Shown: in pieces, positions 20,321 through 64,000 of the stretch
Layout of the letters: each line of letters starts with the position of its first letter
Numbering within the stretch: position 1 is the first letter of the stretch
NCBI GenBank assembly: GCA_965645245.1
Contig: OZ287082.1
Coordinates: 248,001-312,000, forward strand
Length of the DNA stretch: 64,000 nt
Reading direction: 5' to 3'
From: Massalongia carnosa
Lineage: Eukaryota
The notes under the pieces: model-generated
The model's database searches: none
Told to the model about the DNA's origin: nothing
What the model saw: the letters and a program-made list of their open reading frames with translations, nothing else
Program-made: the position numbers and the translations under genes

Positions 20321-21384
20321 ATCGGCCAAAATCACTAGAAATCAAGGTAAAACATGGAAATTTTCACCTAATATAGGTTTTTCGGTCATGGCAGCTTTGG
20401 TCAAAGCTGGGGGGGGTGTGTCAGGCGATTAGGGGTCATATGACCCACGAACCCCTATGAGATATCCCCCAATTAGCTAGCCTAGACCTCCCATATAGAT
20501 CAATACACACCACTCCTTTTCACCCATATTCCACATTAGCCCATACAGCTTGATACGCTTCAAATACTTCGAAGACGACGCTTTCGCCTTGCACACTGAA
20601 AGCCGAGCAAGACATTAGCTATATGGGTCATGTATACAGCAGGCAGACTTTGGGGTACTCGCTCATGGTGCCGCCGAATGAGTAGGCCCGTATTCTGTTC
20701 CGCAGTATGCAGGATGAGAGGATCTCTGCGCTCAAAATTTCGACATTCAGTCAAAAGAGATGTCTTGTTGAGTTTGCCACCAACTTTTATGCTCTTGCAG
20801 GTCTGCAATACACGCCGAATACCTTCCCAGTGAGCACCAAATTCATTTTTCGCCAGGTCTCCTAAGGTTCGACTAGCATCCAGTAGGCATTCTGTCAGGT
20901 TGGACGCAATCCGGCCGATCCTGCTTTCTTGTTTGCCTGGAAGCCGCGAAGGTAACGCGACGTGATCGAACAATGACTCTAGTATGGAAGATGTCGATTC
21001 AACAGGATTATTCATGGGAGCGAGAAGTGCAGAATGGAAAAGTGGAGGATGAAGAATGTTTTCTTGTAGAAAAGAGAATATTAGAATCGTTCACTTGTCG
21101 CAAGCGAGTGATTACCCCCCCCCGCCTTTAAGCCTAAAAACTTATAGCTTCGGATTTGGTGGAAGACAGCAGAACATCCTCATGGACTGATAGAATGTGC
21201 GAACGGACTCTGCGACGCATATTCAATTGCCGCTTTCATTGTTGCATCTCGAACAGGTTTGCGTGGTCATTCCAGCTTTGGCAGATCAGCATCAGTTTAC
21301 AGGAAATCAAGACCTTTCACCCAGCAAGCGTACTTGTCCATCGGAGAGCATCCCACTAGACTCTATTAATAGGGATCATAACGG

Positions 21385-22287: not shown

Positions 22288-24777
22288 TCACCCTTCAACG
22301 AGAGCCCGTGCGACAGAAATTTTCGACTTCTTGCCCTTTTTGGTCCTTTTATACCCACTGTCCGGAGCCTCTGGAGGGATGGCAGGAGCAAGAATTTCCT
22401 CCTCGAACACGATCTCACGCTCGGGTCTTTCAATAGTTGGGCGCCTTACGGATTCGAATGAAAGTCTAGACGCCTCATCAGAGTCATTTGACTCATCGCT
22501 TGCAGAGTCATTGTTGAACTCGGAATCGGATTGAGTTGCGCCATCATCTGCACCTACCCAGGATATAAGCAACTACTGAAATGGAACAGGCAGGGGCCTG
22601 CCTTACCAAGGAGTCTAACGCCGATGAAGCGCTTACAGGTATCAGAGCCTTTAGTGAGGACGTCAAGCTGCTTGATTAGTTGTCCACGCTGGGCACGGTT
22701 CTCCTCGGATTCACCAGCCATGCTCGTCACGAGCTCGGCTGACATAGCAGAGACAGCTACGGGAGTGAAGAGACCGCCGAGTGGGGAGATGAGCTTCGCT
22801 TCGATTACTTCGATGGCGATGTCGTCGATGAAGCGTTTCAAGGCAACCTATAATCACACGATGGGGTTAGTAAGGGAGATAATGGAAGTAGGGGCAGGAT
22901 ATAAATAGAGAGTTGACCTTGTAATAAGCCTCCATACAATCTAAAGCTTCGGAACAGGCGAAGCGATTCATGTCTGGTTCTGTACGTTGCGCCAAAGCGG
23001 TGACGAGTTGGCGGAGGTCATGGTTTTGACCACAATAATGTAAAGTTTCAAGGGAAGAGACGCCAAAGAATTGTTTTACGATCTTGGAGTATTCATTCTG
23101 GTTGCGTTCGTAACGGAGCTTTTGGAGAGTTTCCGTGAAATAATGGTTGTACGTGATTGGATGGCTTTTCTGATGGGGTGTTAGCAGCTCGGTGGTCTTC
23201 TCATGCAAAGTTTTCAAGAGTTGGTTCAGAGCAGGCTCGAAGATTTTTTGAAAGAGTGCTTTGGAGGTTGTGACATCAGCGACGTAGGCGGTTGCATGGG
23301 CAAGGAATTCCTTAACGGCCTTCCAGACTTTGTCAACGTGGCTCCGAGCGATGGCTTCCCAGGAAGTTGATTGCTCCAAGAACAAATCCGACACGATCAT
23401 GGGATTGAAGGTCCCTGGCAACTCTCGGCCCTTGGTCCTCTTCATCAGGTGCTGTATATGGTCAATGAATTTATCTCTGGTGATAGGAATCACATCTTTA
23501 GAGATGTGACTTGTGTCTTTTGAATCGGTGACCTCGCGGCAGTGCCCTCGTCTAGCAATGTTAACCGCAAAGTTTGAATTGAGGTTCTGCATCACAGCTC
23601 GTATACGTTTTTGATAGCCGGGTTCTGACTTGGCGTCTCCAAAGAACGGATCGTTATATGTACCATCCACAGCAGCTTTGACCAGAGATTGGAATGATTG
23701 ACTTAAGTGGAATAGGTAGAGCTGCTGCTCTGCTAAGGTAGCTCGAGGGTCCCCAAACTTATCCAACCGGCTGCGGCAAGCGCCTGACTTGATTTCAATC
23801 TCATCAATCAAACTGGGTAGCTCGGCAGCGATTTGTCCAAGCAAGACCTTGCTGAGCCTACTCCGTAACTTTTCGACGCCTAAGAGCGACCGAGACATGT
23901 CTCCCCATATCCCTTGGGAGAAGAATTCCTCTTCCTTGACATCGCGATCCGCTAATGACCACTCTCCTGTTTCGGAGTCCATGTTTTTCAATACATGCCA
24001 CCCAAGACGGAACTCCACGTCCTGGTTTTTGGCAAGAGAGACGTACATGGCTTCACTCTCGGAACCTGCAATCAAAGTATCAGGCTTTGTGATAACACCC
24101 AATGTCCGATTACCCTTTTTATCAGCTGCACGGGCGAGCTTCAACACGATTTGGTTCGAAGCATCATTCTTTGCCGAGACCACGGCGAGAATGATACTTC
24201 TCGGTTCTTTCATATAGGATTGAACGACATCTTGCACGAGCTCAACATCGGAAGCAGACTGCTGTTTTGTTTCGGAATGGATGAGTCCAGGTAGGTCCAC
24301 AATTGTCAGGTGAGGCCGATCAGGACCCGAGACCTCCACTCGAAGGAGGTCTTTCGAGAAAGCTTTGCCATGGGTTGAGATTCCCATAGCCGCTTTCGCG
24401 TTCTCAATCAAATTCGGAAGCCCTTCGAAGCACTCCAGCTCTTCGTGAAAGCTGCTGAGAGCAAGTTGTTCGGACTCACTGCGAGCTTGATGCGGGACGA
24501 TCGACACGCTTACACCCATTTGCGACGTCTTGCGGAGGACTAATTCTGTCGGAAATCGAGTGCTCAGGTTGCTTTTGACAGGAAAAGATACCCCAGAAAT
24601 TGCCTCCAGCACGGAGCTCTTTCCAGACGACTGGTCGCCGCATACGATGATCTGTGGCAATGAGACATAATGACTAATGCCTTGCGAACGGAGACAGTCT
24701 ACGGAGTCCAGCAAATCTAGTTGATCTTTGGAACCAAACCCATTTAGGGCATCTGTCTGGAACGATGTCAACCCCAT
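22288..24777 (-). CDS. Dynamin-like (Mx-like) GTPase, 3 exons (24777-22918, 22847-22607, 22553-22288), apparently intact
   Basis: G1 LPQIIVCGDQSSGKSS, G2 STRFPTE, G3 DLPG, G4 TKPD, stalk GRELPG, GED-like YYKVALKRFIDD. Introns 22917-22848 and 22606-22554 keep the frame. Confidence 0.92.
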
Positions 24778-26147
24778 TTTGAATGTTGACAGTTGAGGTA
24801 GATTTGATGAAGATAGGATTGAAGGCGGGAAGACCAGAAAGGTGATAAGCAAAGTTGCAAACGCATTAACCCGCACCGTGGAAATACAGGCTCCAACGCA
24901 AAGGTGTGGTAGCACAAGTTAGCTTCTTTCCATTCTGATGCCGAGAAGTGAGTCATAGGAGAAGAGAATAACACGTCGCATTTTAGGTAAATAGTATGGT
25001 TGGGTAGGATAATGCTACAGCTCGGCCAGATGTATACTAGACGTGGGTCCATGACTCTTGGAAGAGCTATCATTGGGTGCAAGCTGCACTGGGCGCTTTA
25101 GGAATATGCCCCTCTTGCTCAATTGGTTCACCGACGCGGGACCCTGAAACATCTTTCTCCTATACTTTTACACCCGCTACAACCCCTATGCAGGAGGCTT
25201 CTGGCTTCATCTAACGGAAACCACCCATTATGTTCGGGGAAGCGGATGATCTGCAATGGAGTCTGGACGAAAGTGGCAACCAATCGGTGCAGTCTTAATG
25301 ACTAATTAGTTCTTAGTCACCAAGAAGTTCTTAGCATTACGTTCTCAGCACTAGTTATTCTATTGAATTGAACTGGGACTCACCAATTCTGATACTTCCC
25401 GCTGCACTGACCAGAAAGCTTGCGCAAGTCAGCGAGCCATGCTCGAAACCCTGCTTATGGAGATACGCGAGTCCCTCTAACACCTACCTCGGTCAACTTG
25501 CTGGTCCAAGATAATTCATATGTAGTTACCTCTTTTCAGTCTTGACCGTAATATGCTGTACTTTGAGCGACTTTAAGGTATTGTACGGTCGGGAGTACGG
25601 GAGCAATGAATGAGCGATTAATGACCAGTGATCTATGACAGACGCAAGGGATTCTTAGTAGCAGTCAAGCTTAGTGTTGGGCGTAAGGGTCGGAGACAAT
25701 CAATAAGGTTTGACGGAATTAATTCGAGTATATTCGAAGCTGGGACACATTGAAACGAAAATTCGTTCTTGGAGTTTTGGTGGTTCTGCTTATGAGGACT
25801 AAATGTTATGGCTTGTTGCTAGAATGTGTTGAGTCGCTCCGCAAGTCGCTTTGACAGGCTCTTCCTTTTCTGCCATACCAACCAAATGAGGTGGGCGTTG
25901 TGAGCTGGTTCCTGGGGCGAAACGGCGTTGGCCAAGTGCTTCGCCATTTCGGTCGCATCACCTTCCATCTGCAACCCCCTTCCTGTGCTATGTGTAGGTA
26001 GCGCCTGCATTCCGGTTGGCATGAGGTATCAGAAGCTTTTAGAAGGACATTAACACACGAGCTGGGCGAAATGTTCGACGAGTGTAATAAATTATTTGCG
26101 CTTGCGTCTCCTCGTTGTTTGTAAGATACAAAGAGCGAATGCCCGAC

Positions 26148-27142
26148 CTATCCCAAACTCCCCTCTCCGCTGGCTATCTTAGCTATAGCCTCATCGAAAG
26201 CCTCAAGGATAGGTTCATATAGCTTCTCCGGATCCGGCGGGGTTCCAGTAAACAATCCATCCTTATATGGGAAGAGGATACCCCGTATCTCTTGACACAA
26301 AGGCTTAAGGTGATCGAATATTGAAGGAAATTCCTCCAAAATGTCCTCAAACCCGTCAACACCCATATCGCCTCGTTTACTTCGAGCGATATCATCATAA
26401 TCGCCCGTGTACCACTTCGTTAAAATGCTTTTCCTGGGTCTATCCACCAACTTGCACCCAAATTCCCTTTCCCACGCACGACGAGCGCAGATCCATAGAA
26501 GCACATAAAAGAATGACTCGAGGTCATGCCGATAGGTATGAGCGACTCTGCGTAGCACTTCAATCGCCATAAACTCCATTGTGCCTGTCTGATGCCGTGC
26601 GCCGGTTCGCCCGCCACCGACTATTTTCGCAAGATCTACATCGATCAGCATCCCCGTGAAGCCATTGGCCTGCTTTGGATTGGTTATTATGATGTTGTTT
26701 TCCGAGATGTCTCTGTGCAGAATAGATCCTTCCAAGTACAAAGATCTATGCGCCTTGATCGCATCACGAAGTGCCATTAACAGCTATAGGATCGAGTAAA
26801 AGTCTTTGATTGCTCGTCCGGCCGTCGACATAATTAAGCAGCCGAACACGCGATTGTCGAATGATCTGTCGCTTGGGCCACAGAAACTCGAGGCTTGTGT
26901 ATTTTCAAGGGCTTGTGACGATTCGTTTTCTTGAGATAGGTCTGATCTTTGGCTGTTGGATCTCGACCGCTTCGAAGACTTTTCTTCGCTTTCCTCGGAT
27001 TTTCGTTTCCTTGTACCGGCATTTCCCGGGGCTTGCGATACTTCGTACTCCTTGCATGACTTCGACTTTTGACTGATGGATACGGGCTCATTAAGCAACT
27101 TTCCTTCGTGGTCCACAGACTTCGGCCCTGACCGTTGAGCAC
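26148..27142 (-). pseudogene. Fungal-type protein kinase (FunK1/Pkinase_fungal), 5'-truncated with an in-frame stop
   Basis: LRDAIKAHRSLY..ILHRDISENNI..GMLIDVDLA..TGTMEFMAIEVL..HTYRHDLESFFYV. TAG at 26784-26786 separates in-frame ORFs 26784-27116 and 26148-26777. The upstream part is replaced by a gag fragment. Confidence 0.88.
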
Positions 27143-27520
27143 ATTGTAGTGCTCAAACTCCTCAATAGACTCGGCAGTTCATTCAACACCTACCTCACCA
27201 TCCTGAACGAACAAGCCCGGCGGGAGGACAAATTCCCGGCGTTGGATGACTTACCAGAAACCTGGAAGACGAGGAGGCTCGTATGCGCCAGGACCCTGTC
27301 GCCGTAGCTAACATGCTGAAGACAAAGGGTAAGAAGAACCCCACCGAAGAGGGTAAGAACAAATGCAAATGCTGGGGTTATAATCACTCCGGAAAATGCA
27401 GGCATAGCAACGCTACATGTAGGAAGTGTAGTAAGATTGGCCATCTGGAACGCGTTTGTGAAAGCAAAGAAGGTAATGAAACCTCAAAACCCCAAATAGT
27501 CTGTGCAACTATCATAGTGA
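27143..27520 (+). mobile_element. Copia-type gag fragment
   Basis: IVVLKLLNRLGSSFNTYLTILNEQAR and zinc knuckle CRKCSKIGHLERVC. No LTR attached. Confidence 0.65.
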
Positions 27521-33000: not shown

Positions 33001-35377
33001 TCAATCAACATACTCCGACGTGTCCGCATACCCGGCGCTCTCGGGCATTGCACCGGGAGATCCAAGCCTAACCTGCTCTATCAACGACCTGAACAATTTG
33101 ATCCAGTCGGTATCGCCCCCGTGGTGCTTTTCAGCAATCTGAAGCGCACTTAGTTTCTGTTTCGTTACATCTTCAACATTAATGCCACGAAGATCATACG
33201 AATCCACGCTCCGAAGAATCTCATAGTCGCCATTTCTCTGGGCAAGAAAGTGCAGCAATGTCTCCCCGTTGGCCGTTTTGAGTAGATGATTAGCTCCTTG
33301 CTTCAGGAGATGACGAACGACTTGATGATCACCGGACATGGCCGCATGATGAAGAGCACATCCTCCATCTTTGCCCTGGATATCGAGGTCTATATGGCTC
33401 TCGATTAGAAATTCGGCAGTGGCCGTATGAACATTAAACGTCGCGATCATGAGAGGCGTATGACCCAATCTCGTTTTTGCATTTCTATCGGCTCCTCGAT
33501 TGAGAAGTGCCTTGATGATGCTGATATCGACGTCGTAACGACAACAATGATGCAGAGGTGTATATCCGTCTTTCTGTTGGTAGTTAACGTTAAAGCCGGT
33601 CTCGAGAATCTTCCAAATACATTCGGTATTACTAGACATGATCGCCGCAGTCAGTATTGAAGTCCCACGGTTGTTTTTGCTGTTCCTATCAGCCCCGGCT
33701 CCGAGAAGAAGGGACACAGCCTGAACATCGCCACGCCGCGCTGCCCAGTAGAGAGGTGTTTGGCCCTCCACATCTTTTTCATCAATGGCATGATAGGGCA
33801 TGTCGTCGAGCAAAGGCTTTATTTCAAAACGGCTTATACCCAAAACGCTTCTATGGAGAAGACTCAGATTGGACTCCAATGCATAGTTGTCGCTGGACGA
33901 GAACGCCACAAGCAGTTGGAGGTTCTTTGCTGCTTTATTATTGGTCAAGACAGCCTCCCATGCAATGTCGACTGCAGATCTATTTGAATTAGCCAATAGG
34001 AGTATCAATAGTCACTCAGACGCACCTATTTTGGTAGTCTACAAAAAATGGATCAGCCCCCTCATGTAGTAGAATGTTACATATTTCCCCGTGTCCTCGA
34101 GAAGCCGCAACCTAAGAAAGAAGATTAGCGAAGGTGGGCCTCGCCATAGAAGAAGATCATACCCCGAGTAATGATCGTTGGAGTTTAGACATCACATCAA
34201 AAGGAGACCCCAACCTAGCTTTGAGCAGGGCTTTCATTCTGGCGACATCTCCTTCATAAGCATAGCGGAAAATGGGCGACGAATACTCCACACAGTGAAA
34301 GATTCTAATCTTGTGATCGAACCCCCTTATAGTTGTTGTAAGTGCTAAAGTAAATCCCCACGCGAGAAGCCACAGAGGAAAGAAGTAACTCAATGAAAGC
34401 ATAATGTCTGAACTTGCACAGGACTGTGTACAACCCAGGTTGTTGCAACGAGGTACTACAGATGAAACATCAGAATATCCAGCAAATATAGTGCCAAAAA
34501 CTTGGTCAAAAACTCGAGATGACCTCTTTGAATACCTGTGATGGCAGCAGCAGTCACATCTAGGGGCTAGGTTGGAGATATATAAGGTTTTCATTGCCAT
34601 CGTCAAGGCTTCGTTCTTATATTCTAGTGAAGATTCTTCGACTGCCTTTTGTTCATGAATGGAAAATTTTCGAGTCATTGGCTCCAGCAAAGCTTCCAGC
34701 TTTACACAATGCTTCTCATTGGACTGTTCTAATTTTGCTTGGACTTCTTGAAGTTTCGCCATATTGTTGCTTAAAGATTGTGCTAATGTTTCGAGACGCA
34801 TGGAAGTATCCCTTCCAAAATATTATTGTCAGCACATGAGTTATCTCTAACTGATGACGAAAAGTACAGTACTGATGTCATGCGACGAAGTGGAAAAGAA
34901 TCTGGTTGAGTTTCAGAAATCTTACAAGTCGAGAGCTCCGAGCGCTATGTTCAGTCTGGATCTGACATCAAACAGGCCCTGTTTGAGAAATTTCAATTTT
35001 TTCTCCTCTTTCATCCACTTGACCCACTTTCTTGGAGCAAGAATGTCCGAGCAGGACAACAACACACGTAATTGGCTAAGTGAGCGATGTAATTCGATGA
35101 TAAGGGCTTCGGCTTGTGCAAGGCAGCTAACCACGCAGGCGGTCGTATCACGATCTAGAGTAACATGATCGCTGCATGATATAAAACCTTTTGATTGTCT
35201 GTTGAACAAAGTCTGTACGACAAGGACATCAAGTCGCAGGTGGGAGAGCTCTTCGTCGAAGGCTACGGCCAGACGTGGGCCGTTTCTGAACGAGGCAATT
35301 GTTTCTGAGAGTTGGATACATGTTGAGATTAAACTTGCCAAAGTAATGATGCTCGCCGTCAGTGATAACGGATCCAT
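33001..35377 (-). CDS. HeLo-like fungal N-terminal domain + Cys/His linker + ankyrin repeat protein; 4 exons (35377-34926, 34811-34163, 34111-34026, 33979-33001)
   Basis: MDPLSLTASIITL N-terminus, RCDCCCHHR linker, and repeated GQTPLYWAA/GYTPLHHCC/GHTPLMIA/GGCALHHAA/GETLLHFLA ankyrin motifs. Three GT-AG introns (114, 51, 46 bp) keep the frame. Confidence 0.85.
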
Positions 35378-36797: not shown

Positions 36798-38967
36798 GAA
36801 AGATTTCCCGAGGAAATGCCGCGCCCGGCGAAATGCCGCACTTTACAATTCGGCATTAGAATATTGTTTTCGTCGTTAATCAACAACTACAACGATTAAT
36901 GGAATGTGTATTAAATATAGTATAAATAGAAAGTATATACACGATATCCGACCCTAAAAACCTTACATAGCAAAACGCCCTGGGCGCTGAACCCTTCTTC
37001 CAGTCGAGGTAGTTAAAACCACCTCCTCTACCTCTTTAGCGATAATAACACGAGTAGGCGGCTTTACCTTCTTCTTTCGAGTCTTTTGAACTTTAGTAGA
37101 CCCTGTATACTGCTTCTGCTGCCCGAGCTGTCCCTTAGGATATCTGTTTGCTGCTTTACGTAACTCCTTCTGAGCCTGCTTCTCAGCGGCCTTTGCTACC
37201 TTTGCTTCTGCAGTCAATCGCCGCTTCTCTAGAGCGATTGCTACCTTTTCTAGCTTCTCCTCTTCTTTCTGTAACCTTTTAGCAGTAGCTTGTCATCGCT
37301 TCTCGCTAATATCTAGCTGGCGTTGTGCTTCTTCTTCCTCTTTTGCTGCTTGAAATTCCCTGGCAGCCTGTACTCGCCTAGGACTAAAGAATTGAGGGCC
37401 TGAGTCCTCTTCCCCAACTAAATTAAGCCGTTTACCTCTCTTCCTCCTCTTCTTTTCGTCCTGAAGGGTATTGCAGAGCCTTTTGATCACGTGTTTGTTG
37501 ATAGAGTCCTGGGCAGCAAGGCGTTCGTTAGCCCGGAAGATCTTTGCTAGTAATAACTTCGTAGGCACAATATCGTACGCTCGCTGCGTACGGCGAATAG
37601 CACGGCTTGTCATTGGTGTTTTTGGCGACTGAGAAGGAGCCTCGATTATCTGTGGTGTGATAACATTTAGTATAAGGCTCGGATTGTAAGGCCAAATACT
37701 GGTTTTTTCGAAGGCAGAAGTAATTTTTTCCTCCGAAAATGCCTGCTGCCATGCAGGGAAGAAAACGCTCCAAAAGGCTCTTTTTGACATGCTTATCATG
37801 CCTAGACTATCGAACATTAGTCTATTCAGCCCGTTGGTATAGAACGTTGCTAACGGCGCGAATAGAGAAACGTCCAGAGACTGTAAACGATGCGTAGAGT
37901 GCGAAGGTAGAATCAGGAGAAGAATACGTAAGTTATCGCATTTATCGATAAACTTAAGATTCACGTGGCTAGAATGACCGTCTACTATCAGTAAACGTCT
38001 TCTATTTCTAGCCTTTTGCTTCGTATAACGCTGAAAAACCTACTCTAGCCAATTCAGGCCAAGGATATCACAACTCCATCCTTTCGCCGATACTGCAAAG
38101 AACGCCTCGTCATTAGGATTTACATCCTGAACCCATGTATCCTGGAGTATGCCAGAGTCGTCTTTATAGATCAAGGCAGGAGGTAAAGCAGTTCCGTCGG
38201 TCCCGATACAAGCAAGGAGGCTGATAAACTCCCTATTCCCGTCCTGGCTTGCATGTGTGATCCGCCCTGATTCGAGGGCCTCTAGCGACATGATACGTTG
38301 CGTGGCACTTACTTGGCCAATCACAAAGCCCTTTTCGTCCCAATTGTAAAGGTTTTCCCCCGTGATATTGTATTTTTCGACACCGGCGACTAGCTAATAG
38401 AAAAATTAGTTATTTTCGATCATAATTAATATTCAACAAATAGGAATGGATAGTTAACACGCTACCAAATCGTAGAATTGCTTAAATAAAGGCGGATACT
38501 CAGATTTTATACGCTGGCTATCCATATTTCGAAGATAAAGACTTTTAAGCCTATCCTTGTATCGGCGGACAAAATCCCCTGTCCGGTTCTTTCCTACAGG
38601 CCCTCCTATCACCTCCTCCGCTAGGTTTCGTACAATTCTGGCGGTTGGGGGCAGTCCACGATCGACAAGGCGATTGATTTGCTGAATTAAGGCCTCTTCC
38701 TGGGCCAAGGTAAGTCGTTGCTTGTATTTTGACGCGGCTGCCTTTTGGGACACCGTTTGGCCTTCCCAGCGCCTCCGGAGGGTACTTTCGACTAGGCTAA
38801 ACCTTTTAGCTGTACCCCTGAGGTTAGGCTCATCTTGCTGATTCAGATCAGCAATTGCGAGCTCGATACGAGCGTTGAGGGTGGATTTATTCATATTTGA
38901 AAGTAATGGTTGGAAAGTGAGAAGATGCGGCATTTCGTCGGGTGCGGCATTTCCTCGGGAAATCTTC
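36798..38967 (-). mobile_element. Tc1/mariner pogo/Fot1-like DNA transposon with defective transposase (38894-36963)
   Basis: TIRs containing AGATTTCCCGAGGAAATGCCGC, flanked by TA. HTH/CENP-B-like N-terminus, YNWDEKGF, LIVDGHSSH and HRLQSLDV. Stop at 38040 and frameshift near 37293. Confidence 0.88.
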
Positions 38968-44192: not shown

Positions 44193-45558
44193 ATGACCTC
44201 TTACACCCTCCGAAGTCGTTCCGTAGGCGTCCAACCCTCGGAGTCTGAACTGGAGCCAGAGGCCCAACATCCTAGTATAGGGATTGTGGTAGACAGCCAG
44301 ATGGACATCGGGCCAGACATCGGCACCGTGTCGGGCTTAACTGACTCAAGCCTAAGCATTCCTTCTCCTGGGATAACGTTAACCAAGGAGCAGATGCAAG
44401 CGCGTATAGATACCATCATGGCAAAGAAAGCTGAGGCTCACCTTAGCCGACAGCTTGCCATCATGGAGCAAGAAGAACAGGACGGTTTTCCTCTCGCTGA
44501 TACCAGTCCAATGACGTTGTCTCACCGGGGCCGCAGCAGCAGGTTGCCGTCCAGTGAAGAGATACTCGAGAAGAAGCTAGAGAACAATCGAAAGGTTGAG
44601 GCTCGGCTGAACGTCATCAAGGTAGATCTGTACACAGCTGATACGTATGCTAAATGTGTCATCTTTATAGCCCAGTGTCTCCAGGCTTTTCAGCAAAAGC
44701 CTGCCACATATGATACGGCCAAGGGACAGATCCTTTTTGCCAAAGCCTTCAAGCGAGGAGACGTCGTTATCAAGTGGCAGACCCACGAGGAAGCGGTAGG
44801 TCTCGATAATATTACCTGGGAAACATACGTTACATGGTTGAGAGACGATGTATGGCCGCCACACCTCCGAATTCATGACGGATTCTTGAAGTACCGCTCA
44901 GTGCGACAACGGGAAGGACAAACCGTCGCCCAGCTGATCGCGTACATCAGGAGCATAGAAGACATCCTACCCCCACAAGAGCCATCCATGAGAATGAACA
45001 CACTCCTAGGAGCTCTGAAGCCTACCCTCCGGGAAGAAATAATCAAGCACAATTCTTCGGTAACCACCCGGGAACTCCTTGAACCCTTAGCTCAGAAGCT
45101 CGAGGCCATTGACAACAACTATAACCGTACCAAGGCGAATGGCCGAAGAGAGGCACCATCGCGACCCACACGGGATAGCGATGCCACATCTGGATGGAAC
45201 GTCTGGAAATCGGACTCGGGGAATGATTACTGATCTGGCTTTCATCAAACCCCTACTCATGACAAGAGGAACAAGGACGGTTTCCATCAAGGTCAGCGTC
45301 GCAAGAGGTCCGTATCTTCCCATCGCACATATAACGAGGGAGGAAAGTATAATCGACACGGATCAAACGGTAAGGAGCCTATGAGGTCCTTCAATCGTGA
45401 CAGGATAGATCCGGGCCGTCAGCGGGAACGCCGTGGCAACAATGGTAACAACGACAGTACCATCAAGTGCTATAACTGCGGCGATTACGGCCACAATGGC
45501 AAAGACTTGTCTCAAACCCAATAATCCAAAGATGGAGGGAAACGGCAGGGGCCAGTAG
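44193..45558 (+). CDS. gag: Gypsy gag, with small frameshifts near 45200 and 45494
   Basis: Capsid-like ITWETYVTWL..VRQREGQTVAQL. Zinc knuckle CYNCGDYGH at about 45468 in a shifted frame. Ends EGNGRGQ-TAG. Confidence 0.75.
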
Positions 45559-48500
45559 ACATCGCAACCCTTCTATTGACCCGTTCTGCTAGGGGGCAAA
45601 ATGTCAACCACATAGTGACGCCGGTTACTATGATATGCGGTAAGTTCAAGTTGACGGTAAGAGGTCTCATAGATTGTGGTGCAACTTTGAACTTTATCAC
45701 CCAGATCCTAATTAAGAGGTTGGGTTGTGAGCCTGGCGTTGATCTCCCGCATGGGGTTCGGACCATTGACGGTACTGCGCTCAGGACCTATCAACTTCAT
45801 ACTTTGTACGCCAAAGTTGTGGACTCGATAGAGAATGAGCGTGTTACCAAGGCGGACTTCATCGCAGCAGACTTCGCTGGATTCGATGTTATTCTGGGCC
45901 TACCATGGCTAATACGGGAAGATCCCGAGATAGCATGGGGTCAGCGGAAGTGGTGGTATCGGCTAGGGCCTGCGTTACCACCGATCCCACTTTCACCGTT
46001 GCAAAAAATACAGGTTCATAAAGCCACGGAGTTGCCACCGGTACCTGGAAGTCATTTAATGAATGGACCCACGCTACCTAAAGGGCGGTACAAGCTCGTG
46101 AGGCAAAGAGCCTTGGCAAAAAGAAGAAAGCAACTGCCCATACCTGCTCCGCTTAGGAGCCGTAGAAGTTCAGTCGGACGCTCTGTGAGTCCAGAGAAGA
46201 GGTCAGCGACATCGATCGTTGCAAAGAATGTACAGTTGTCATCGGAGTCTTCTTTCGTGAACCCGAATAATGTACATGAGACCAAGAGAAGTCTTACTTC
46301 GGAAGATATCTTGATGAGTTCTTCTACTAGGAAAGAACCGTATAATGCGCGTGACGAACCCGTATCTATAAACATAGCATTACTTAGTGCAGAGGAGTTT
46401 GATGAATGTATCACAGAAGTTGGTGCTTATCTCTTTGCCATCGAAGTAACGGATGTGACCCGTGATAGTCCCGTACTCGGTGCGACCGTTGAAGTCATTC
46501 TTCCTGAGGAGTATCAAGACTTCCTCGATGTCTTTTCTGAAGAGAAAGCAAACAAGCTTCCCGCTCATGCATCTCATGATCATGCAATAGAAACGGAAGG
46601 TAGTCAACCCCCGTACGGGCCTATCTATCCTCTTTCCATTGTAGAATTAGAGGTCTTGAGAAAGTACATAGACGAGCACCTCGCGAAAGGCTTCATCACC
46701 CCATCCGTGTCTCCAGCGGGAGCACCCATACTCTTTGTAAAGAAGAGCGATGGAGAGTTGCGTTTATGCGTAGACTATCGAGGACTAAACTCCATCACCA
46801 TTAAGAATCGACATCCTCTGCCTTTAATCGCAGAAGTATTAGATCGACTGGTGGGAGCAAAGTTCTTTACAAAGATAGACCTGCGTGCCGCATACAATCT
46901 GATACGCATCCGGGCAGGTGACGAATGGAAGACGGCGTTTAGAACCCGTTATGGACACTTCGAATATAAGGTCATGCCATTCGGACTAGCAAATGCCCCA
47001 GCGACATTTCAAGCATATATTAATAACACGCTGCGCGAGTTTCTTGATCTGTTCGCAATTGCATTCCTAGATGATATTCTCATCTTCTCGGAGACGTTCG
47101 ATGAACATGTGGAACACGTACGAAAAGTACTCGGGAGGCTGCGGAAGTTCAAACTCTTCGCGAAGTTATCAAAGTGCGAGTTTCATGTGTTAGAAACCCT
47201 GTTCCTTGGGTTCTTAGTAGGCGCGGATGGAATTTCTATGGACCCCAGCCGCGTCGAGACTATTCGGAGCTGGCCTGAACCGGGAACACATAGAGACGTG
47301 CAGGTCTTTTTAGGCTTTGCCAATTTCTATCGCAGATTCATTGAGGCGTTTGCCCGCATAGTATCCGCACTATCCGATCTGTTGAAAGGAAGTACGAAAG
47401 GAAAATTTACAACCAAATTTATCCTAACAGAAGAGGGTCGAAAGGCCTTTCACCGTCTAAAGGCCGCGTTTATGACGGCACCCATGCTTCGTCATTTCGA
47501 TCCCAGTCTGAAGATAAGGATTGAAACGGACGCATCGGGATTTGCTGTCTCTGCGATCATTACTCAATTAAATCCAGAGACAGGACAATGGCATCCTATT
47601 GCATACTGGTCCAGGAAAATGACTGATCCTGAGAGAAATTATGGCATCGGCGAAGCCGAAATGCTGGCCATCGTAGGAGCGTGCCGGCAGTGGAGACACT
47701 ACGTAGAAGGCGCGGCTCATCCTATTGAAGTCATTACCGACCATGCAAACTTGAGAACTTTTCTTACTAGCAAAAATCTCAATAGAAGAGAGGCTAGGTG
47801 GTGGGAGAGACTCTCCGGCCTAGATCTTCAAATAATATACCGCCCGGGGAAACTTAATCCTGCGGATGCGCCCTCCCGACGGAGCGACTACGCCCCTCTC
47901 GGTGAGGCAGAGACGCTTCTGGCCACGCTGTCAGGAAGCAGTCAAACAATAATTATTCCATCCCTTAATACAGGGGGAGGAGCGTTGCTGACCGCAACAA
48001 GCAGGCCCCATCCTAAGCCCGGCATCGTATCGGAGGAACTGCTTAGGAACGGTGCTCAAACACCGTGGGATATATCCCGAAGCGCATTTGCCTCGTTAGT
48101 TCCGAAGGAAGGATCTTCTGTGCCTTCTGCGGGCACTACACGGAGTCCTTCCGAACTCACAACGAGAAGAGATTCCAGTCTTAAGGGAGAAAATTCCACT
48201 ACCCTGACTGATCTTCGCGAGCCCGCTGAGGAAGCGTGGTCGTTCCAGCTCGCGGACGTTGCAGGACCGCAGACCCTGGCGTCAAAAGATACTGTGAAAG
48301 AAGTAACTCAGTATGAAACGGCCTATGCTGTGCCCTCTTTAGAATTGCGCACCGTTTTACAAATCTTACAGGAGGCTGATCACCTTGTGCAGGAAAAACG
48401 GCCCCTCACCGCACAGTCGGAGTTGTGGGAGCGTGAGGACAGAGAGAGTACGGACGATAGACTGGTAAGAAGAGACTCTGTGCAAAGCGACACACCGCCG

Positions 48501-49958
48501 GCCCAGCTCAGGCAACCCGAAGGTGCAGAGACGGCTAGGCAAAAATATGTTAACTCCATGACCAAAAGAAAGTGGCATATGGATGGAGAACTCTTATGTT
48601 ATAATGAGAAATGGTATGTTCCTGCTGGTCTTTTGAGAAGACGCTTACTTGAACGTAATCATGACGATCCCTTTGCGGGCCATTTCGGATTCGATAGAAC
48701 TCTTGACTTGATAAGAAGAAAGTATTATTGGCCAGGTATGTACAAAGACGTAAAGCATTATGTCGAGACGTGCGCAAAATGTCATCGGGCAAATGCCGTA
48801 AGGCACAAGCCCTGGGGACAATTATCTTCCCTTCCCCTTCCTAGAGCCCCATTCAGTGATATGACAATGGACTTTATCACCGATCTTCCGCCCAGCATGC
48901 GGAGAGGCCTCGTATCAGACTCGATACTTGTGGCCGTCGATCGTTATACAAAGTTCGCCATTTATATTCCCTCAAGAATGGACTGGTCAGCCGAAATAAT
49001 GGCCGATGCTGTGTTTGACCTAGTCTATGGTCAGCATGGAATGCCTGAGAATTGGGTCACTGACAGAGGCAGTCTGTTTACCTCTCATTTCTGGGAAACT
49101 TTTTGCGCACACCTGTCGATACTGTGCCGCTACAGCAGCGCGTTTCACCCGCAAACTGACGGGCAGACAGAAAGACAAAATCAGACCTTGGAACAATATC
49201 TTCGTACCTTTGTCAATTATCAGCAAGATGACTGGGCACAATGGTTAATTGTTGCTGCATTTGCTTACAATAATAGCGTTCACACGACTACCGGGGTGAG
49301 TCCATTCTTCGCCGCCTATGGCCGTCATCCCAGATGGGAAGAAGAAATCAAGGACGTAAATACAGACATCCCGGCGGCCAGGGTGCGGGCAGAGGGACTC
49401 ACAGAGATGAGACGCATGCTCGAAGCAAGATGGAAATCCATCATGGAGAAACAAGCCAAGAATTATGACAAAAAACATGTCCCTCACAACTTCAACAAAG
49501 GAGAAAAGGTATGGTTGAATGGAAAGAACATCCGCACCATTAGACCTTCCAAGAAGTTGGACTTCAAATTCTTTGGACATTGTGAAATCATAGAACCCAT
49601 AGGTAAGCAGGCGTACAGGCTCCGGCTTCCCACCACAGCGAAAGGCATACATGATGTTTTTCATGTGTCTCTATTGGAACCTTATAAGGTATCCGCCGAT
49701 AGAGAAGAGCCTCAGCCGCCGCCAATGGAAGTTGACGGCGAAGAACAATGGGAAATAGAAGATGTACTAGACAGCCGCTTCTATTATGGGAAAATACAAT
49801 ACTTAGTAAAGTGGTTGGGTTACCCAGATACGGATAACCAGTGGCTACCGGCCGGGGAAATGGAGGGAGCAAGAGAATTGACCTCGTCGTTTCATGAGAG
49901 GTATCCAAATAAACCACCAAGTGGTGGGCCACCCAAGAAACGACGACGACTCAACTAA
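45540..49958 (+). CDS. pol: Gypsy pol (PR-RT-RH-IN-chromodomain), uninterrupted
   Basis: LIDCGAT, LCVDYRGLN, FLDDILI, IETDASG, HDDPFAGH..CAKC, VTDRGSLF, WEIEDVLDSR..QYLVKWLG and terminal PPKKRRRL in a 1460-aa ORF. Confidence 0.96.
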   Translation, partial: KRQGPVDIATLLLTRSARGQNVNHIVTPVTMICGKFKLTVRGLIDCGATLNFITQILIKRLGCEPGVDLPHGVRTIDGTALRTYQLHTLYAKVVDSIENERVTKADFIAADFAGFDVILGLPWLIREDPEIAWGQRKWWYRLGPALPPIPLSPLQKIQVHKATELPPVPGSHLMNGPTLPKGRYKLVRQRALAKRRKQLPIPAPLRSRRSSVGRSVSPEKRSATSIVAKNVQLSSESSFVNPNNVHETKRSLTSEDILMSSSTRKEPYNARDEPVSINIALLSAEEFDECITEVGAYLFAIEVTDVTRDSPVLGATVEVILPEEYQDFLDVFSEEKANKLPAHASHDHAIETEGSQPPYGPIYPLSIVELEVLRKYIDEHLAKGFITPSVSPAGAPILFVKKSDGELRLCVDYRGLNSITIKNRHPLPLIAEVLDRLVGAKFFTKIDLRAAYNLIRIRAGDEWKTAFRTRYGHFEYKVMPFGLANAPATFQAYINNTLREFLDLFAIAFLDDILIFSETFDEHVEHVRKVLGRLRKFKLFAKLSKCEFHVLETLFLGFLVGADGISMDPSRVETIRSWPEPGTHRDVQVFLGFANFYRRFIEAFARIVSALSDLLKGSTKGKFTTKFILTEEGRKAFHRLKAAFMTAPMLRHFDPSLKIRIETDASGFAVSAIITQLNPETGQWHPIAYWSRKMTDPERNYGIGEAEMLAIVGACRQWRHYVEGAAHPIEVITDHANLRTFLTSKNLNRREARWWERLSGLDLQIIYRPGKLNPADAPSRRSDYAPLGEAETLLATLSGSSQTIIIPSLNTGGGALLTATSRPHPKPGIVSEELLRNGAQTPWDISRSAFASLVPKEGSSVPSAGTTRSPSELTTRRDSSLKGENSTTLTDLREPAEEAWSFQLADVAGPQTLASKDTVKEVTQYETAYAVPSLELRTVLQILQEADHLVQEKRPLTAQSELWEREDRESTDDRLVRRDSVQSDTPPAQLRQPEGAETARQKYVNSMTKRKWHMDGELLCYNEKWYVPAGLLRRRLLERNHDDPFAGHFGFDRTLDLIRRKYYWPGMYKDVKHYVETCAKCHRANAVRHKPWGQLSSLPLPRAPFSDMTMDFITDLPPSMRRGLVSDSILVAVDRYTKFAIYIPSRMDWSAEIMADAVFDLVYGQHGMPENWVTDRGSLFTSHFWETFCAHLSILCRYSSAFHPQTDGQTERQNQTLEQYLRTFVNYQQDDWAQWLIVAAFAYNNSVHTTTGVSPFFAAYGRHPRWEEEIKDVNTDIPAARVRAEGLTEMRRMLEARWKSIMEKQAKNYDKKHVPHNFNKGEKVWLNGKNIRTIRPSKKLDFKFFGHCEIIEPIGKQAYRLRLPTTAKGIHDVFHVSLLEPYKVSADREEPQPPPMEVDGEEQWEIEDVLDSRFYYGKIQYLVKWLGYPDTDNQWLPAGEMEGARELTSSFHERYPNKPPSGGPPKKRRRLN

Positions 49959-59224: not shown

Positions 59225-59367
59225 TATTATTATATAGCTATATAACAATACAGTGCACCCTGGCTATAACGATCTTGGTTATAACGGTAATCTGGTTATA
59301 GCGATTTGACCTTGTGGAAGCGATTATTTTGTTAGACAATTAACGATAACTTATTTGTTCCGATATC

Positions 59368-59475
59368 GTTAGCATACTTAGTCCGCAGACCAAGCTCTAT
59401 TCTACTATAACTGGGACTCCTGCTATGTTCGCTGTAGGTCCTGCCGTCCGCACCACGCTTGGTCGAACCGTTACA
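59368..59475 (+). mobile_element. Probable short solo LTR (108 bp) inside the pogo element
   Basis: GTTAGC...GTTACA flanked by ATATC on both sides. Shares 26 bp with the Copia D LTR. The first T of the canonical TG is missing. Confidence 0.55.
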
Positions 59476-60486
59476 ATATCAGCCAGTAATGGCCTCAGGG
59501 CCTCCATTTCATCTCCTCCACTTCGTAAAAAACGTCGCGCTATCACCGATGCGGAGCGAAAAGCTCTTTGTGATTACTATTTTGATGAATCAAATGGTAG
59601 ACCTCCCCATATGCAACTTCGTCAGTGGTTCGAGCAGCAGTTTCATCATTTTCCCTCTCAATCGACCATATTCGAGTCACTTTCTTCCACTTTCGCTCAC
59701 TTGGACAATAAGGTGCAACGTTTAGAGGTCAGAAAAAACCGTGCAGCACAATGGCCAGATCTCGAAGACGTTTTATTCGAGTGGCAGCAACGAATGATGC
59801 GAAAAGAAGCTACAATAACAGGAGAAATTCTTAAAGAGATAGCCGCTATCTTTTGGAGTAAGCTTCCTCAATATGCTGACGAAGAACAACCCAAATTCTC
59901 TACTGGCTGGCTAGATGGCTTCAAAAATCGACATCAGATCAGTAAATAAAGAAGACATGGCGAGGTCGGTGCCGTTGATAATATAGTCGTAGAGACTGAG
60001 CTGAAGAATATACGTGAGCATCTCAAAGAATATGATAATCGCGATATTTTCAATATGGATAAGACAGGTCTTTTTTAGAAGATGAGCCCGGATGATACGC
60101 TTGCCACTCAGCAAACACCTGGAGGTTAACACGAAAAAGCCAGAATATCTGTCAATTTCGCTACAAATCTGACCGGCACGGATAAACTTCCTCCATAGTT
60201 CATTGGAAAAGCCGCAAATCCTCGCTGTTTTAGACGATCTGGCATTAACATCCACAATTTCCGAATAGCCTGGCGTTTCAATCAAAAGGCCTGGATGACT
60301 GGACGAATTTTCAAAGAATATTTGCGTTGGTTTGATAATCGAACGACTGGACGCAAGGTAATTCTTTTGATAGATAGATTTTCAGCTCATAAAGCAGGTG
60401 ATTCAGCTATAACGCGATTTGATGAATCATTCACTCACTGAGTTAACAGGAATCGATTTATTGTATAAAGAATTTTCCGCTGGCCT

Positions 60487-60976
60487 TGTCATGGAATTAC
60501 CTCGCACCCTCCCACGTTTCCTGATCGGGTTAGTATTTAACAGGCTCTCTTGCCGTGAAACCTGCACTGCATGTTGAATAGAACCGTGGCCCGTTATTCC
60601 GAACTATCCTGAAACCTCGCCCCATGTGTTCAGACGTTCTTCCGCTGCCTTCAGTGCACTCCCAAACTCCTATATCCCGAATCCAATCTCAACGTCTCCA
60701 CTATCTAAGCCTACGACTGGGATTGCCCAGCAGAGAGAGATTGCTTCGGCATGGAGAAAGGCGGAACAGGTCAAAGCGATCATGGTTAGGAAATTAGAAC
60801 AGGAACAGAGATGAGGGCAAGTCAAGAATAGGGGAGTTGGAAGCCATGGCTATAAAACCTATGTGGTTTCTCAGGTGTTTGGAGCTCTTCGTCGGACGTC
60901 TTGTACACTATCCCTAGACCTAGCTTTCTTAATAGTAACTCTTGTATATCTCCCTATCTGGACCTTGTCCGTGACA
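60487..60976 (+). mobile_element. Solo LTR (490 bp) inside the pogo transposase
   Basis: TGTCATGGA...TCCGTGACA flanked by GGCCT at 60482-60486 and 60977-60981. The transposase resumes GLTNTKILFLPANAT. Confidence 0.9.
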
Positions 60977-62550
60977 GGCCTTACAAACACGAAAATTCTT
61001 TTCCTTCCTGCGAATGCAACCTCTCTATATCAACCTCTCGATCAAGGCATTATTCATGCCTGGAAGGCTCATTATCGAAGAAGATAGCTGCGTTAAATTA
61101 ATTCTTAATACGAAAAAGACATTGATCCCACTAAAACAATGAATGTTTTACAAGCTATTCGTTGGGGAGTTGACGCATTGGAGCAGGACGTTACTGAGAC
61201 AACAATCAATAATTGCTGGGTGAAATCTCGGGTATTGAGTGCTAAATATGGTCCAATGAACAGAGAGGAGGCGGAGAATATGGGCTGGCATCAAGAGGTG
61301 AAGGAGGAGAATTCTTCATATGACGCTGTCATTTCGAGTATGGCTCACCAAATGCATCATCTGGTTCATCAGGATAGAATCGCAAAGGCGATATCTATTA
61401 CTCAGTTTTTAAATCCACAAGAGGAGGATGTTTATGACACCGAGGAAGTCTTGATCGACGACATCGTCAATTCGTACAGCAGAGAGGAAAGAGCTTATGA
61501 GACCAATAAGGAGGATATAATCATGTCTCGAAGTCGTCATAATAAGGTTATTTTGGCTCTACAAACTCTTCGTTTGTATGGAGAATAGCAGGATGAAGGT
61601 GATAGTGAGCTCATTTCACGTATAAATCGACAAGAAAGGGTTATCAGAAAAAGGACCAAGCAGGGGCTTAAACAAACCACAATTGATAGCTATTTTACAT
61701 AGTAAATAGGGGGAATTCAAGCTTTCTTTGGGTATAACGATATTCTCCTTATAACGATTTGACGTAATAGAAAATCAAAATCGTTATAGCCAGGATGTAC
61801 TATAGTCATATACCTATTTCAACACTATAGCCCTACCTCGATTAGGCCACGTTCGTCAAACTAATTACTATTACATGATTGGATCGGTTGAGACTATCGC
61901 ATAGCTGTCTTCCCGTGCACCCCCTGCAGACGTATGCCACCGCTTTATGTCTTGTAGGAAGCTATCCTAAAAAATGCTTGAAAATCAGAACGAAATTTGT
62001 TTTTGTATCAAGATAAGATGAACGATAATGCAGTAAAATTCAGATTGAAATCTGCTTTTGAATTAAAGTAAGATGAATATTAATACAAAAAAAGTCAGAC
62101 TGAAATCTGTCTCAGAATTAACGTCATCCTCTGAAATGTCTTAAAATCTTCGAATAAAAAGTCTGTCAAGTGTTTAAAATCTTTAAAAATTGTCTTTGAT
62201 ACATGCAATCTGACAAAAGATCTTTTGAGAATTTTGCCTATGAGGCACGAAGGCCAGCAGGACTTTAAAGTTTTTCTATGGGGCACGTAGACCAGCAGGA
62301 CTTTGTAGTTTGCCAATGAGACATAATAAATCCGAATCTTTACAACTATTTCTCATGATTATCAATATGAGAAGTCTTGAATAATGTTATGCATGAGATA
62401 ATATTTCATGATATAGATACGATGTTTAATTTTGCATAAAGATAATATCATACTGTTATTGAAAGAGAATTAAAGTCCATTCTGCAGCACACGTTTCGCA
62501 AACCTACTTTAATTCTCATCCCCAAATCGTCATATTCTTCAACTATCGTT

Positions 62551-64000
62551 TCACTCTAGCCACGCGTTCGCCGCCGATAGAATATCCCGCAACGTCCCGT
62601 TATCATTATCCTCATCTCTCATAGCCCGAAAATCAAAACCACGACGACGACAATGACGATCGCGATTCAGAAACATCGCCCGCTCGAAATCGATCAGCAT
62701 GAGGCGATCCAGTTCGCGGTTCCAGAGGACGTTGGGCGGGCGCAGGTCTGCTTGATTGATTCCTGCGAGTGTCACTTCGGCGACGGTGCGGCGGAGTTCT
62801 GCTTGGAAGGATGGTCTTGTTTTGACCTTCTCGTAAGATTCGGCCACGTCTCCTCCCCAGGACATGAGGAGCATGTGCACGATTCGAACCTCGACGTCGA
62901 GATGGTAGGGTTTGGCGAGGTCAATGTTGCCAAGATAGACGGGAACGGCCGCGCCTTGAAGATGTTCCAGATGGCGGTACACTCGCCCTTCATGTCGCAA
63001 GTTGGATACGAATGCGCGGATGGTGCCTTTGGCCACGAAGACATAGCCGTGCGAGGTCAATCGGATTCGGAACAATGCCCCTCGAGCACCTCGTTGGCCT
63101 AAGGGTTCGCAGTTCCGGTCAAGGGTACGGTCCAGCTGCCTGTTAACCAACGCCGTGAACTCTGGCAGGCTGATGGCGTGGCGATCGCTCTTTCTCCGAT
63201 GCTTGGACACGTTTGGACAGCGCTCGTCCAGCGTGGATTTCTGCCGGATCCCGAGCAAGCACTTCTGACTGCAGTACCGTTGTCTTTGGTGCTTGCCTTT
63301 ATCCTGATCCTTGCACAGAGACTGTCGCTCTTCCTCATTGGATCTATTTGACAGCTGCCGCACTTGTCCGTTTTTTGGATTCTTCATGGAGGACTCTGTC
63401 TCGGATAAATCCGACGATGATTCTTCAGGAGCAGGATCGATCTTAGGGGGCTCGCAGCGCTTCCTTCCTCGCAGCCGAAGCTTGATCGGAGTTCGATCGG
63501 AATTCTTCGAAATCTTGAGTCCACCGTTGGCCTTGAAGAGCGAACTAGGCGTTTCGACACGTTCTCGATCTTCGTCCGATTGACTCGAAAATCCGGCATT
63601 CTTTTCCCATCTTTCCAGCTCATCCATCATTTTGTTCCGCCAACCCTGGTTCCTCTCGGTGAACTGCTCCGACTGAAACGCCATGAGACACAGGCCAAGC
63701 ACCTGAGCAACAGCAGTGCGTTGCCAGTCGTAGCCATTCCTGTCCACGTCCTCGTTCGGGATGGCCAAGTGATAATACACCGTGGCTGGGTTTTTGGCTC
63801 GCACCCAGAGGAAGACGAGTGCAACTCCTGTCGTGATGTAACTATACTCCAACCCGTTCTCGATCATATCCGAGTAAGCCTGCGTGACCGCGCATCCTAT
63901 GCGCCAGTCCGCTTTATGATCTTTCTGTTCCTGCTCCGTCGCAAATATGGACACGTTGATGACATCGTTAGCTACGTTCATGGGCCGCAGACGTGTTTGC
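62551..64000 (-). CDS. Spok-family-like protein (nuclease-region C-terminal half, Cys cluster, C-terminal kinase); 5' end lies beyond the window
   Basis: AVTQAYSDMIENGLEYSYITTG..FLWV..VYYHLAIP..TAVAQV, Cys cluster YCSQKCLLGI..DERCPN..H, kinase GARGALF..VAKGT..HEGRVY..LQGAAVPVYLG..DLRPPNVLW..LIDFERA. The frame stays open to the window edge (QTRLRPMNV). Confidence 0.8.
   Translation of the reverse strand, partial: QTRLRPMNVANDVINVSIFATEQEQKDHKADWRIGCAVTQAYSDMIENGLEYSYITTGVALVFLWVRAKNPATVYYHLAIPNEDVDRNGYDWQRTAVAQVLGLCLMAFQSEQFTERNQGWRNKMMDELERWEKNAGFSSQSDEDRERVETPSSLFKANGGLKISKNSDRTPIKLRLRGRKRCEPPKIDPAPEESSSDLSETESSMKNPKNGQVRQLSNRSNEEERQSLCKDQDKGKHQRQRYCSQKCLLGIRQKSTLDERCPNVSKHRRKSDRHAISLPEFTALVNRQLDRTLDRNCEPLGQRGARGALFRIRLTSHGYVFVAKGTIRAFVSNLRHEGRVYRHLEHLQGAAVPVYLGNIDLAKPYHLDVEVRIVHMLLMSWGGDVAESYEKVKTRPSFQAELRRTVAEVTLAGINQADLRPPNVLWNRELDRLMLIDFERAMFLNRDRHCRRRGFDFRAMRDEDNDNGTLRDILSAANAWLE

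Follow-up and report, generated by a model that had tools for sequence, protein, structure and literature searches.

A 64,000-nucleotide stretch of Massalongia carnosa DNA (contig OZ287082.1, positions 248,001–312,000; hereafter the window) carries at its edge a gene that almost certainly belongs to the Spok family of nuclease–kinases. We show that the gene is intact: it comprises 749 codons, of which the window holds the 3′ two-thirds and a database-predicted protein, P0124, supplies the 5′ part. The best explanation overall, and one we consider probable, is an intact Spok-family gene with a toxin–antidote mechanism suggested by homology. Taken separately, the kinase or antidote side is somewhat favoured to be functional, and an active killer or driver is doubtful. 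Spok genes are the best understood single-gene toxin–antidote drivers in fungi and are now tied both to Starship transposons and to the upkeep of accessory chromosomes. What this locus contributes is a set of copies, intact and recently amplified, in a probable lichen-forming fungus. It is an ordinary added member of a large known family whose architecture, transposable element (TE) association and copy-number dynamics have already been described, and it changes no concept. What is most curious about it is the occurrence of two intact paralogs, a natural pair, with different nuclease QxxxY motifs and coiled coils of unequal length.

The gene lies on the minus strand, where its C-terminal 482 codons and stop occupy 62551..63999; the 5′ 267 codons fall outside the window, past its end. 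Its frame is free of stops from 63999 to 62554, terminates at 62551–62553, contains no intron within the 482 codons and remains open where the window ends. An earlier note, made from the letters of this DNA, had described an uninterrupted GC-rich open reading frame (ORF) at this edge, and the composition bears it out: GC is 0.543 in the ORF (0.624 at third codon positions) against 0.343 in the adjoining 738-bp spacer (61813–62550) and 0.461 in the whole window. All 482 residues are identical to residues 268–749 of P0124 (749 aa). Because mismatches to the other paralogs amount to 5 residues in 211 or more, P0124 is most probably the product of the window locus. From its N terminus, P0124 comprises a coiled coil, a PD-(D/E)XK nuclease-like domain (residues ~60–417 in the structure model), a disordered linker, a Cys3His2 cluster and a RIO/Kdo-like kinase.

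Family membership is the firmest part of this reading. Every motif quoted in the earlier note (TQAYSDM, ITTG, YYHL, C-x3-C...CPN-x3-H, QADLRPPN and DFE) is found in the translation. These are not chance resemblances, because 639 proteins match the ORF at E ≤ 1e-3 in a search of 5.8 billion proteins and the quoted residues fall on columns that are invariant or nearly invariant in the family. The best match, a 728-aa protein (P0002), is 98% identical over the whole ORF. Among the matches listed, 119 of 120 homologs, including this paralog, bear the precomputed family PF27653 (PF27653.1), which the ESM Atlas names SPOK2_N and finds on 95–99% of members in the three nearest clusters (52, 422 and 2593 members); the profile similarity to SPOK proteins on which the earlier note made its proposal depend is thus carried by the relatives. 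A HMMER pass over 1.84 billion representatives at 50% identity returned 2522 relatives at E ≤ 1e-3, of which 715 reach E ≤ 1e-30. Relatives identified by name come from several lichen fungi and from Metarhizium, Microsporum canis and the Fusarium solani complex; of ten representatives whose source was looked up, none came from Podospora. M. canis and F. oxysporum have been named as rich in Spok-like genes (Grognet 2014, PMC4022471). A local Pfam scan of P0002, with a model set that does not include PF27653, gave no match, and for the ORF it yielded no more than an APH match below threshold (E 0.0088, 16.3 bits versus a cut-off of 23.2). Conservation was counted in a MAFFT alignment of 121 family members; a second alignment had 101 rows.

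The window encodes the second half of the nuclease-like domain (63550..63999, minus strand; P0124 residues 268–417), for which the predicted fold is confident (predicted local distance difference test score (pLDDT) mostly >90 for residues 228–417). The strands carrying D237, E255 and K257 lie off the window in P0124, as does the coiled-coil helix at residues 2–58 (pLDDT >90). The earlier note had placed the catalytic nuclease lysine just upstream of the window edge; in the database prediction it is found there as K257, in an unbroken upstream part with a P-D...E-x-K motif. The arrangement P236-D237-x17-E255-Y-K257 fits the 22-residue span 219–240 given for SPOK3. In the family alignment the catalytic lysine column holds K in all 112 rows that have a residue (9 of the 121 are gaps), and the acidic columns hold D in 106 and E in 110.

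We modelled the N-terminal half from a paralog fragment, P0122 (pLDDT 86.7). The top VIA fold match of this model was BpuSI (3s1s; Z 8.0, 127 residues aligned), followed by DrdV (Z 6.5), a restriction-endonuclease-like protein (Z 6.5), Vibrio vulnificus HsdR (3h1t; Z 6.4) and EcoR124I HsdR (2w00; Z 5.8). Seven of its nine top VIA matches are restriction-endonuclease-like and the other two are mitoribosomal chains, with Z values of 5.7–8.0; over the nuclease-like domain the VIA fold matches comprise BpuSI at Z 9.8 and 8.0 and HsdR at Z 6.4 and 5.8. The V. vulnificus HsdR structure is the same template that was found by HHpred according to an excerpt of Vogan 2019 (PMC6660238). Foldseek returned no match to the N-terminal model at E ≤ 0.001, and a search of the PDB with the family profile found kinases and no nuclease. 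Given the middling Z values and the lack of a Foldseek match, the nuclease fold is supportive and not decisive. The resemblance to HsdR and BpuSI nucleases lies in the predicted fold of the N-terminal half and in the arrangement of D...ExK and a Q-helix; unlike them, the Spok protein has no helicase or methylase partner, and identity is only 16–17%.

One position of the nuclease departs from the family pattern. The QxxxY motif (63868..63882, minus strand) reads Q-A-Y-S-D in the translation (Q307...D311), with Asp, encoded by GAT, in place of Tyr. Paralogs P0002 and P0122 and a 64% identical relative, P0003, all have Tyr at the equivalent of 311, which indicates that Y311D is derived; GAT differs from TAT by a G/T transversion. 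Tyr is found in 109 of 120 relatives and another residue in 11, of which 7 are otherwise canonical, so the site is not strictly fixed and tolerates change. Since those 11 relatives also lack the Tyr, its loss bears on activity rather than on membership. As judged from the sequence, Y311D is the only unusual catalytic-motif change in the window copy, and the earlier note overlooked it.

An AlphaFold2 model of P0124 built from 101 sequences (pLDDT 81.6, predicted template modelling score 0.77) has folded blocks at residues 1–218, 228–417 and 506–716 and a disordered segment at 418–505. The last corresponds to a low-complexity linker (63286..63549, minus strand; pLDDT <50) and to the unstructured region 400–490 of SPOK3; the three domains and two unstructured regions described for SPOK3 are likewise mirrored in the model (excerpt of PMC6660238). 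Downstream of the linker, the Cys/His cluster C510-x3-C514-x13-C528-PN-x3-H534-x6-H541 is read in the translation of 63178..63273 (minus strand), and C510, C514, C528, N530, H534 and H541 are invariant in all 121 family members.

The remaining domain is an atypical, RIO/Kdo-like kinase. Its glycine-rich loop (G568/G571/G574), K591 and E604 are encoded at 62653..63168 on the minus strand, in a domain identified by Foldseek, VIA and profile searches, and K591 and E604 are present in 121 of 121 relatives. The catalytic loop Q683-A-D685-L-R-P-P-N690 (62731..62754, minus strand, from the translation) falls on columns with D in 120 and N in 120 of 121, and D704-F-E706 (62683..62691, minus strand), the family form of the DFG metal-binding motif, on columns with D in 120, F in 113 and E in 118. 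Foldseek placed Archaeoglobus fulgidus Rio2 (1zar) first for the C-terminal domain (E 1.4e-6), and VIA matched kinases at Z 9.4–12.4. With the family profile the best PDB hit was Cdc7 kinase (E 1.6e-5); a PDB search with the single sequence yielded no more than weak matches to MAPK14 (E 0.2). RIO/Kdo kinases (Rio2, 1zar; Rio1, 1zp9) are the best structural match and share the short core, D-x4-N and D-F-E/G, but the Spok kinase shares its polypeptide with a nuclease and a Cys cluster. Of the kinase features claimed in the earlier note, D-x4-N, DFE and QADLRPPN are present; its view that Gln in place of His is unusual does not stand, because the position holds H in 75 and Q in 44 of the 121 sequences. 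At that frequency, Gln ahead of the catalytic Asp counts as ordinary variation within the family and no defect.

Comparison with characterized Spok proteins gives these domains a putative function. The SPOK3 landmarks in the excerpt of PMC6660238 are a PD-(D/E)XK motif at 219–240 with K240 responsible for killing, QxxxY at 294–298, C-x3-C-x13-C-x5-H-x7-H, and D667, responsible for resistance; K240A abolishes killing, and D667A is toxic unless the wild type is present. Judged by motif position, D685 would be the counterpart of D667. The M. carnosa protein resembles SPOK1–4 in having, in the same order, a coiled coil of variable repeat length, a PD-(D/E)XK domain with its catalytic Lys, a QxxxY helix, a linker, a Cys cluster and a kinase with Asp and D-F-E, and also in its similar length, the intron-free coding part seen here, adjoining transposons and several paralogs, some decayed; this likeness is set by published motif descriptions and not by percent identity. 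It differs from them in the Asp that replaces the QxxxY Tyr in the window copy and in the spacing before the last His (x6, not x7), and the host is a probable lichen-forming fungus and not a member of the Sordariales. The Fusarium homologs FuSpok1, FuSpok2 and other FuSpoks are likewise multi-copy, with highly similar paralogs in TE-rich, possibly accessory regions and with conserved catalytic residues, and their proposed role is to keep dispensable DNA from loss. They differ in that toxicity has been demonstrated for two of six, whereas the window gene is known from its sequence.

By homology with SPOK3 and FuSpok1/2, the nuclease-like domain would be the toxin, damaging either DNA or some other phosphodiester substrate, and the kinase domain of the same protein would neutralize it, in cis as well as in trans. 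Nuclei or spores that lost the gene would then be killed, an outcome that would give the gene an advantage in meiosis or, in vegetative hyphae, prevent loss of its chromosome region. The window copy retains D237, E255, K257, the Cys cluster, K591, E604, D685, N690 and D704. With these residues kept and Asp substituted for the conserved QxxxY Tyr, the toxin side may be weakened and the antidote side preserved.

Several points weigh against reading the locus as a working toxin–antidote gene. An excerpt of Sandell 2025 (PMC12693581) reports that two of six tested FuSpoks were toxic in yeast and that the other four, with conserved sites, had no effect, so conservation of catalytic residues does not predict activity. 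The full canonical residue set is present in 96 of 121 relatives, and intactness is therefore simply the family norm. Y311D falls in a motif reported to be important for HsdR nuclease activity (cited in the excerpt of PMC6660238). The PF27653 assignment comes from the precomputed annotation of relatives and not from a score of P0124 itself, residue equivalence to SPOK1–4 was judged by motif position and not by direct alignment, and the 5′ third of the gene and its promoter are known from the database prediction P0124 and not as DNA. The low toxicity rate among catalytically conserved FuSpoks, together with Y311D, is why we regard active killing as unlikely.

The gene is not alone in its genome. 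The 90% cluster of P0002 has five members at ≥90% identity, each recorded on a 2,023,447-bp contig. Two are intact proteins, P0002 (728 aa) and P0124 (749 aa), which differ by three coiled-coil heptads: the 21 extra residues of P0124 are three heptads of EEAxQRR type. P0122 covers residues 1 to ~343, P0125 runs from ~342 to the end behind a spurious start, and P0123 is an internal fragment. P0122 and P0125 look as though a single Spok paralog had been broken in two near residue 343. On that count the near-identical loci number at least four, of which two are intact, one is apparently split and one is a fragment. Repeat-induced point mutation (RIP) was rejected as the source of paralog differences, because P0002 and the window copy differ at 12 amino acids within the window, and transversions are needed for at least 8 of them. 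The pattern of recent amplification, decay, a variable coiled coil and TE neighbours is as published for the family (PMC4022471; excerpt of PMC12693581). The two intact paralogs, differing at the nuclease motif and in coiled-coil length, offer a natural contrast for residues that specify killing and resistance. It is conceivable, though we give it little credence, that they form a killer-plus-suppressor pair that arose by duplication, in which P0002, with its short coiled coil and canonical QxxxY, would be a full toxin–antidote and the window copy, with three more heptads and QxxxD, an allele that is antidote-only or of altered specificity. Such a pair could act mainly through vegetative addiction rather than meiotic drive, given a thallus that lives long and is rarely sexual.

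Sequences from other samples contain the gene as well. Five of the nine public runs listed, drawn from three studies and with one of the five runs labelled lichen metagenome, hold 0.62–0.68 of the words of the window, and their contigs cover the Spok gene at ~99% identity (12 differing letters over 1145 bases, 18 over 1425). In one run, X8, no contig matched the 6 kb compared, high-copy transposons included, and we take this run as uninformative on whether the gene is present or absent. Along with the many relatives from lichen fungi, the matching runs point to a lichen-forming ascomycete.

The most serious competitor, to which we assign a little under an even chance, is that the gene looks intact and does not kill, being an allele that serves as antidote only (resistance) or else an inert paralog that has begun to decay, in a family that expands and then pseudogenizes. 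It would account for the derived state of Y311D and for three of the five cluster members being fragments. It also agrees with the literature: Spok-like genes are frequently pseudogenes (Grognet 2014, PMC4022471); most tested FuSpoks are inert in yeast, as noted above; and a natural Spok2 allele with changes in the nuclease domain kills poorly and retains resistance (excerpt of PMC6660238). On the other hand, the frame is open over all 482 codons (and over 749 in P0124), every other catalytic residue is retained, and the QxxxY position tolerates change, in otherwise canonical relatives too.

The earlier note had further proposed that the gene could stabilize an accessory block and had pointed to the Starship setting of its Podospora counterparts. 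Precedents exist: Podospora Spok3 and Spok4 are carried by Enterprise, in which the DUF3435 gene Kirc is the first ORF (excerpt of PMC8092012), and an F. oxysporum spok on a Starship limits the loss of a dispensable chromosome (excerpt of bioRxiv 10.64898/2026.10.04.756499). The window is also TE-rich and has NLR-like, ankyrin and FunK1-type genes that are typical of variable regions. Against this, no DUF3435 captain was present in the scanned ORFs of the 64 kb (73 of 73 of at least 110 aa and 184 of 195 of 65–109 aa; the 11 short ORFs outside the scan overlap the Spok ORF itself), no Enterprise or Kirc was seen, and neither the gene nor its flank occurs a second time in the window; the DNA upstream of the gene lies outside the window. 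Among Fusarium Spok homologs, just 33 of 408 lie within known Starships (excerpt of PMC12693581). A Starship link is therefore not supported within these 64 kb, with the upstream side beyond the window, and the idea of a stabilized accessory block finds no support here; that the gene is cargo of an Enterprise-like element is improbable.

A host-serving nuclease–kinase, for example in non-self recognition, defence or the DNA-damage response, has in its favour the very large family (2522 representatives, as above), the neighbouring NACHT/NPHP3_N NLR-like gene, ankyrin protein and FunK1 kinase fragment, and a mention in an excerpt of Sandell 2025 (PMC12693581) of separate co-option of selfish behaviour, there deemed unlikely; we think it very unlikely too, given the patchiness, pseudogenes and TE proximity published for the family, the lack of a phenotype on deletion of Spok2 in Podospora (PMC4022471), and the recent multi-copy amplification with decay and the TE-nest location seen here.

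The gene sits at the edge of a TE nest. Between its stop codon and the nearest element lies an AT-rich 3′ flank (61813..62550; GC 0.343), and beyond that a degenerate pogo/Tc5-type DNA transposon (59241..61812, plus strand) bounded by 40-nucleotide terminal inverted repeats at 59241–59280 and 61773–61812. The earlier note had described the DNA next to the gene as AT-rich and mutated. The AT-richness and the TE nest are both there, but the flank has no RIP signature, and broken frames occur only in the neighbouring pogo copy, where HTH_Tnp_Tc5, HTH_ABP1_N and DDE_1 domains fall on separate ORFs. RIP of the flank was ruled out by the negative indices of 62001–62500 (TpA/ApT 0.59–0.73, composite −1.09 and −0.94). 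Composite RIP indices are negative almost everywhere in the window, and this near-absence of RIP fits the survival of paralogs that are 98% identical. Within the pogo copy, differences with A in the window and G elsewhere show a modest excess in TpA context (10 of 15, among the 40 of 102 difference rows listed). Clear RIP-like composition is confined to a single 1-kb stretch, 37001–38000 (TpA/ApT 1.46, (CpA+TpG)/(ApC+GpT) 0.96), which overlaps a pogo DDE_1 fragment at 37296–38039. Contigs of other samples skip 59375–59473 and 60476–60976 within the pogo copy at 59241–61812, which marks these segments as two nested short high-copy inserts. Word depth over the two inserts is tens of times that of their flanks, and they look like a high-copy element resembling a miniature inverted-repeat TE.

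The rest of the window is filled by further elements and a few host-type genes. Copia domains lie at ~5.6–10.1, 15.3–19.3, 28.5–31.2 and 51.8–56.2 kb, Gypsy domains at 38.8–40.0 kb and at 45.5–50.0 kb (with an unbroken 1477-aa pol), PIF/Harbinger at 42.6–44.0 kb, MULE at 56.6–58.4 kb and pogo at 37.3–38.0 and 59.2–61.8 kb. The longer Gypsy polyprotein (45525–49958, plus strand) is free of stops over its 1477 aa and carries protease, reverse transcriptase, RNase H, integrase and chromodomain; it may have been active recently. An NLR-like gene (NPHP3_N/NACHT P-loop plus DUF7791) occupies two adjacent ORFs at 3–2873 on the minus strand and runs off the window start. Also on the minus strand are a 683-aa ORF for a dynamin-family GTPase (22867–24918), fragments of a fungal-specific kinase (Pkinase_fungal, FunK1; 26151–27152) and an ankyrin-repeat ORF (33001–34011), and this dynamin, FunK1 and ankyrin content is typical of variable fungal regions. 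A DUF6606 gene (14193–21090, minus strand) is apparently split into a C-terminal part at 14193–14921 (profile positions 172–266) and an N-terminal part at 20563–21090 (profile positions 1–104), and a plus-strand Copia element at 15255–19305 sits between the two.

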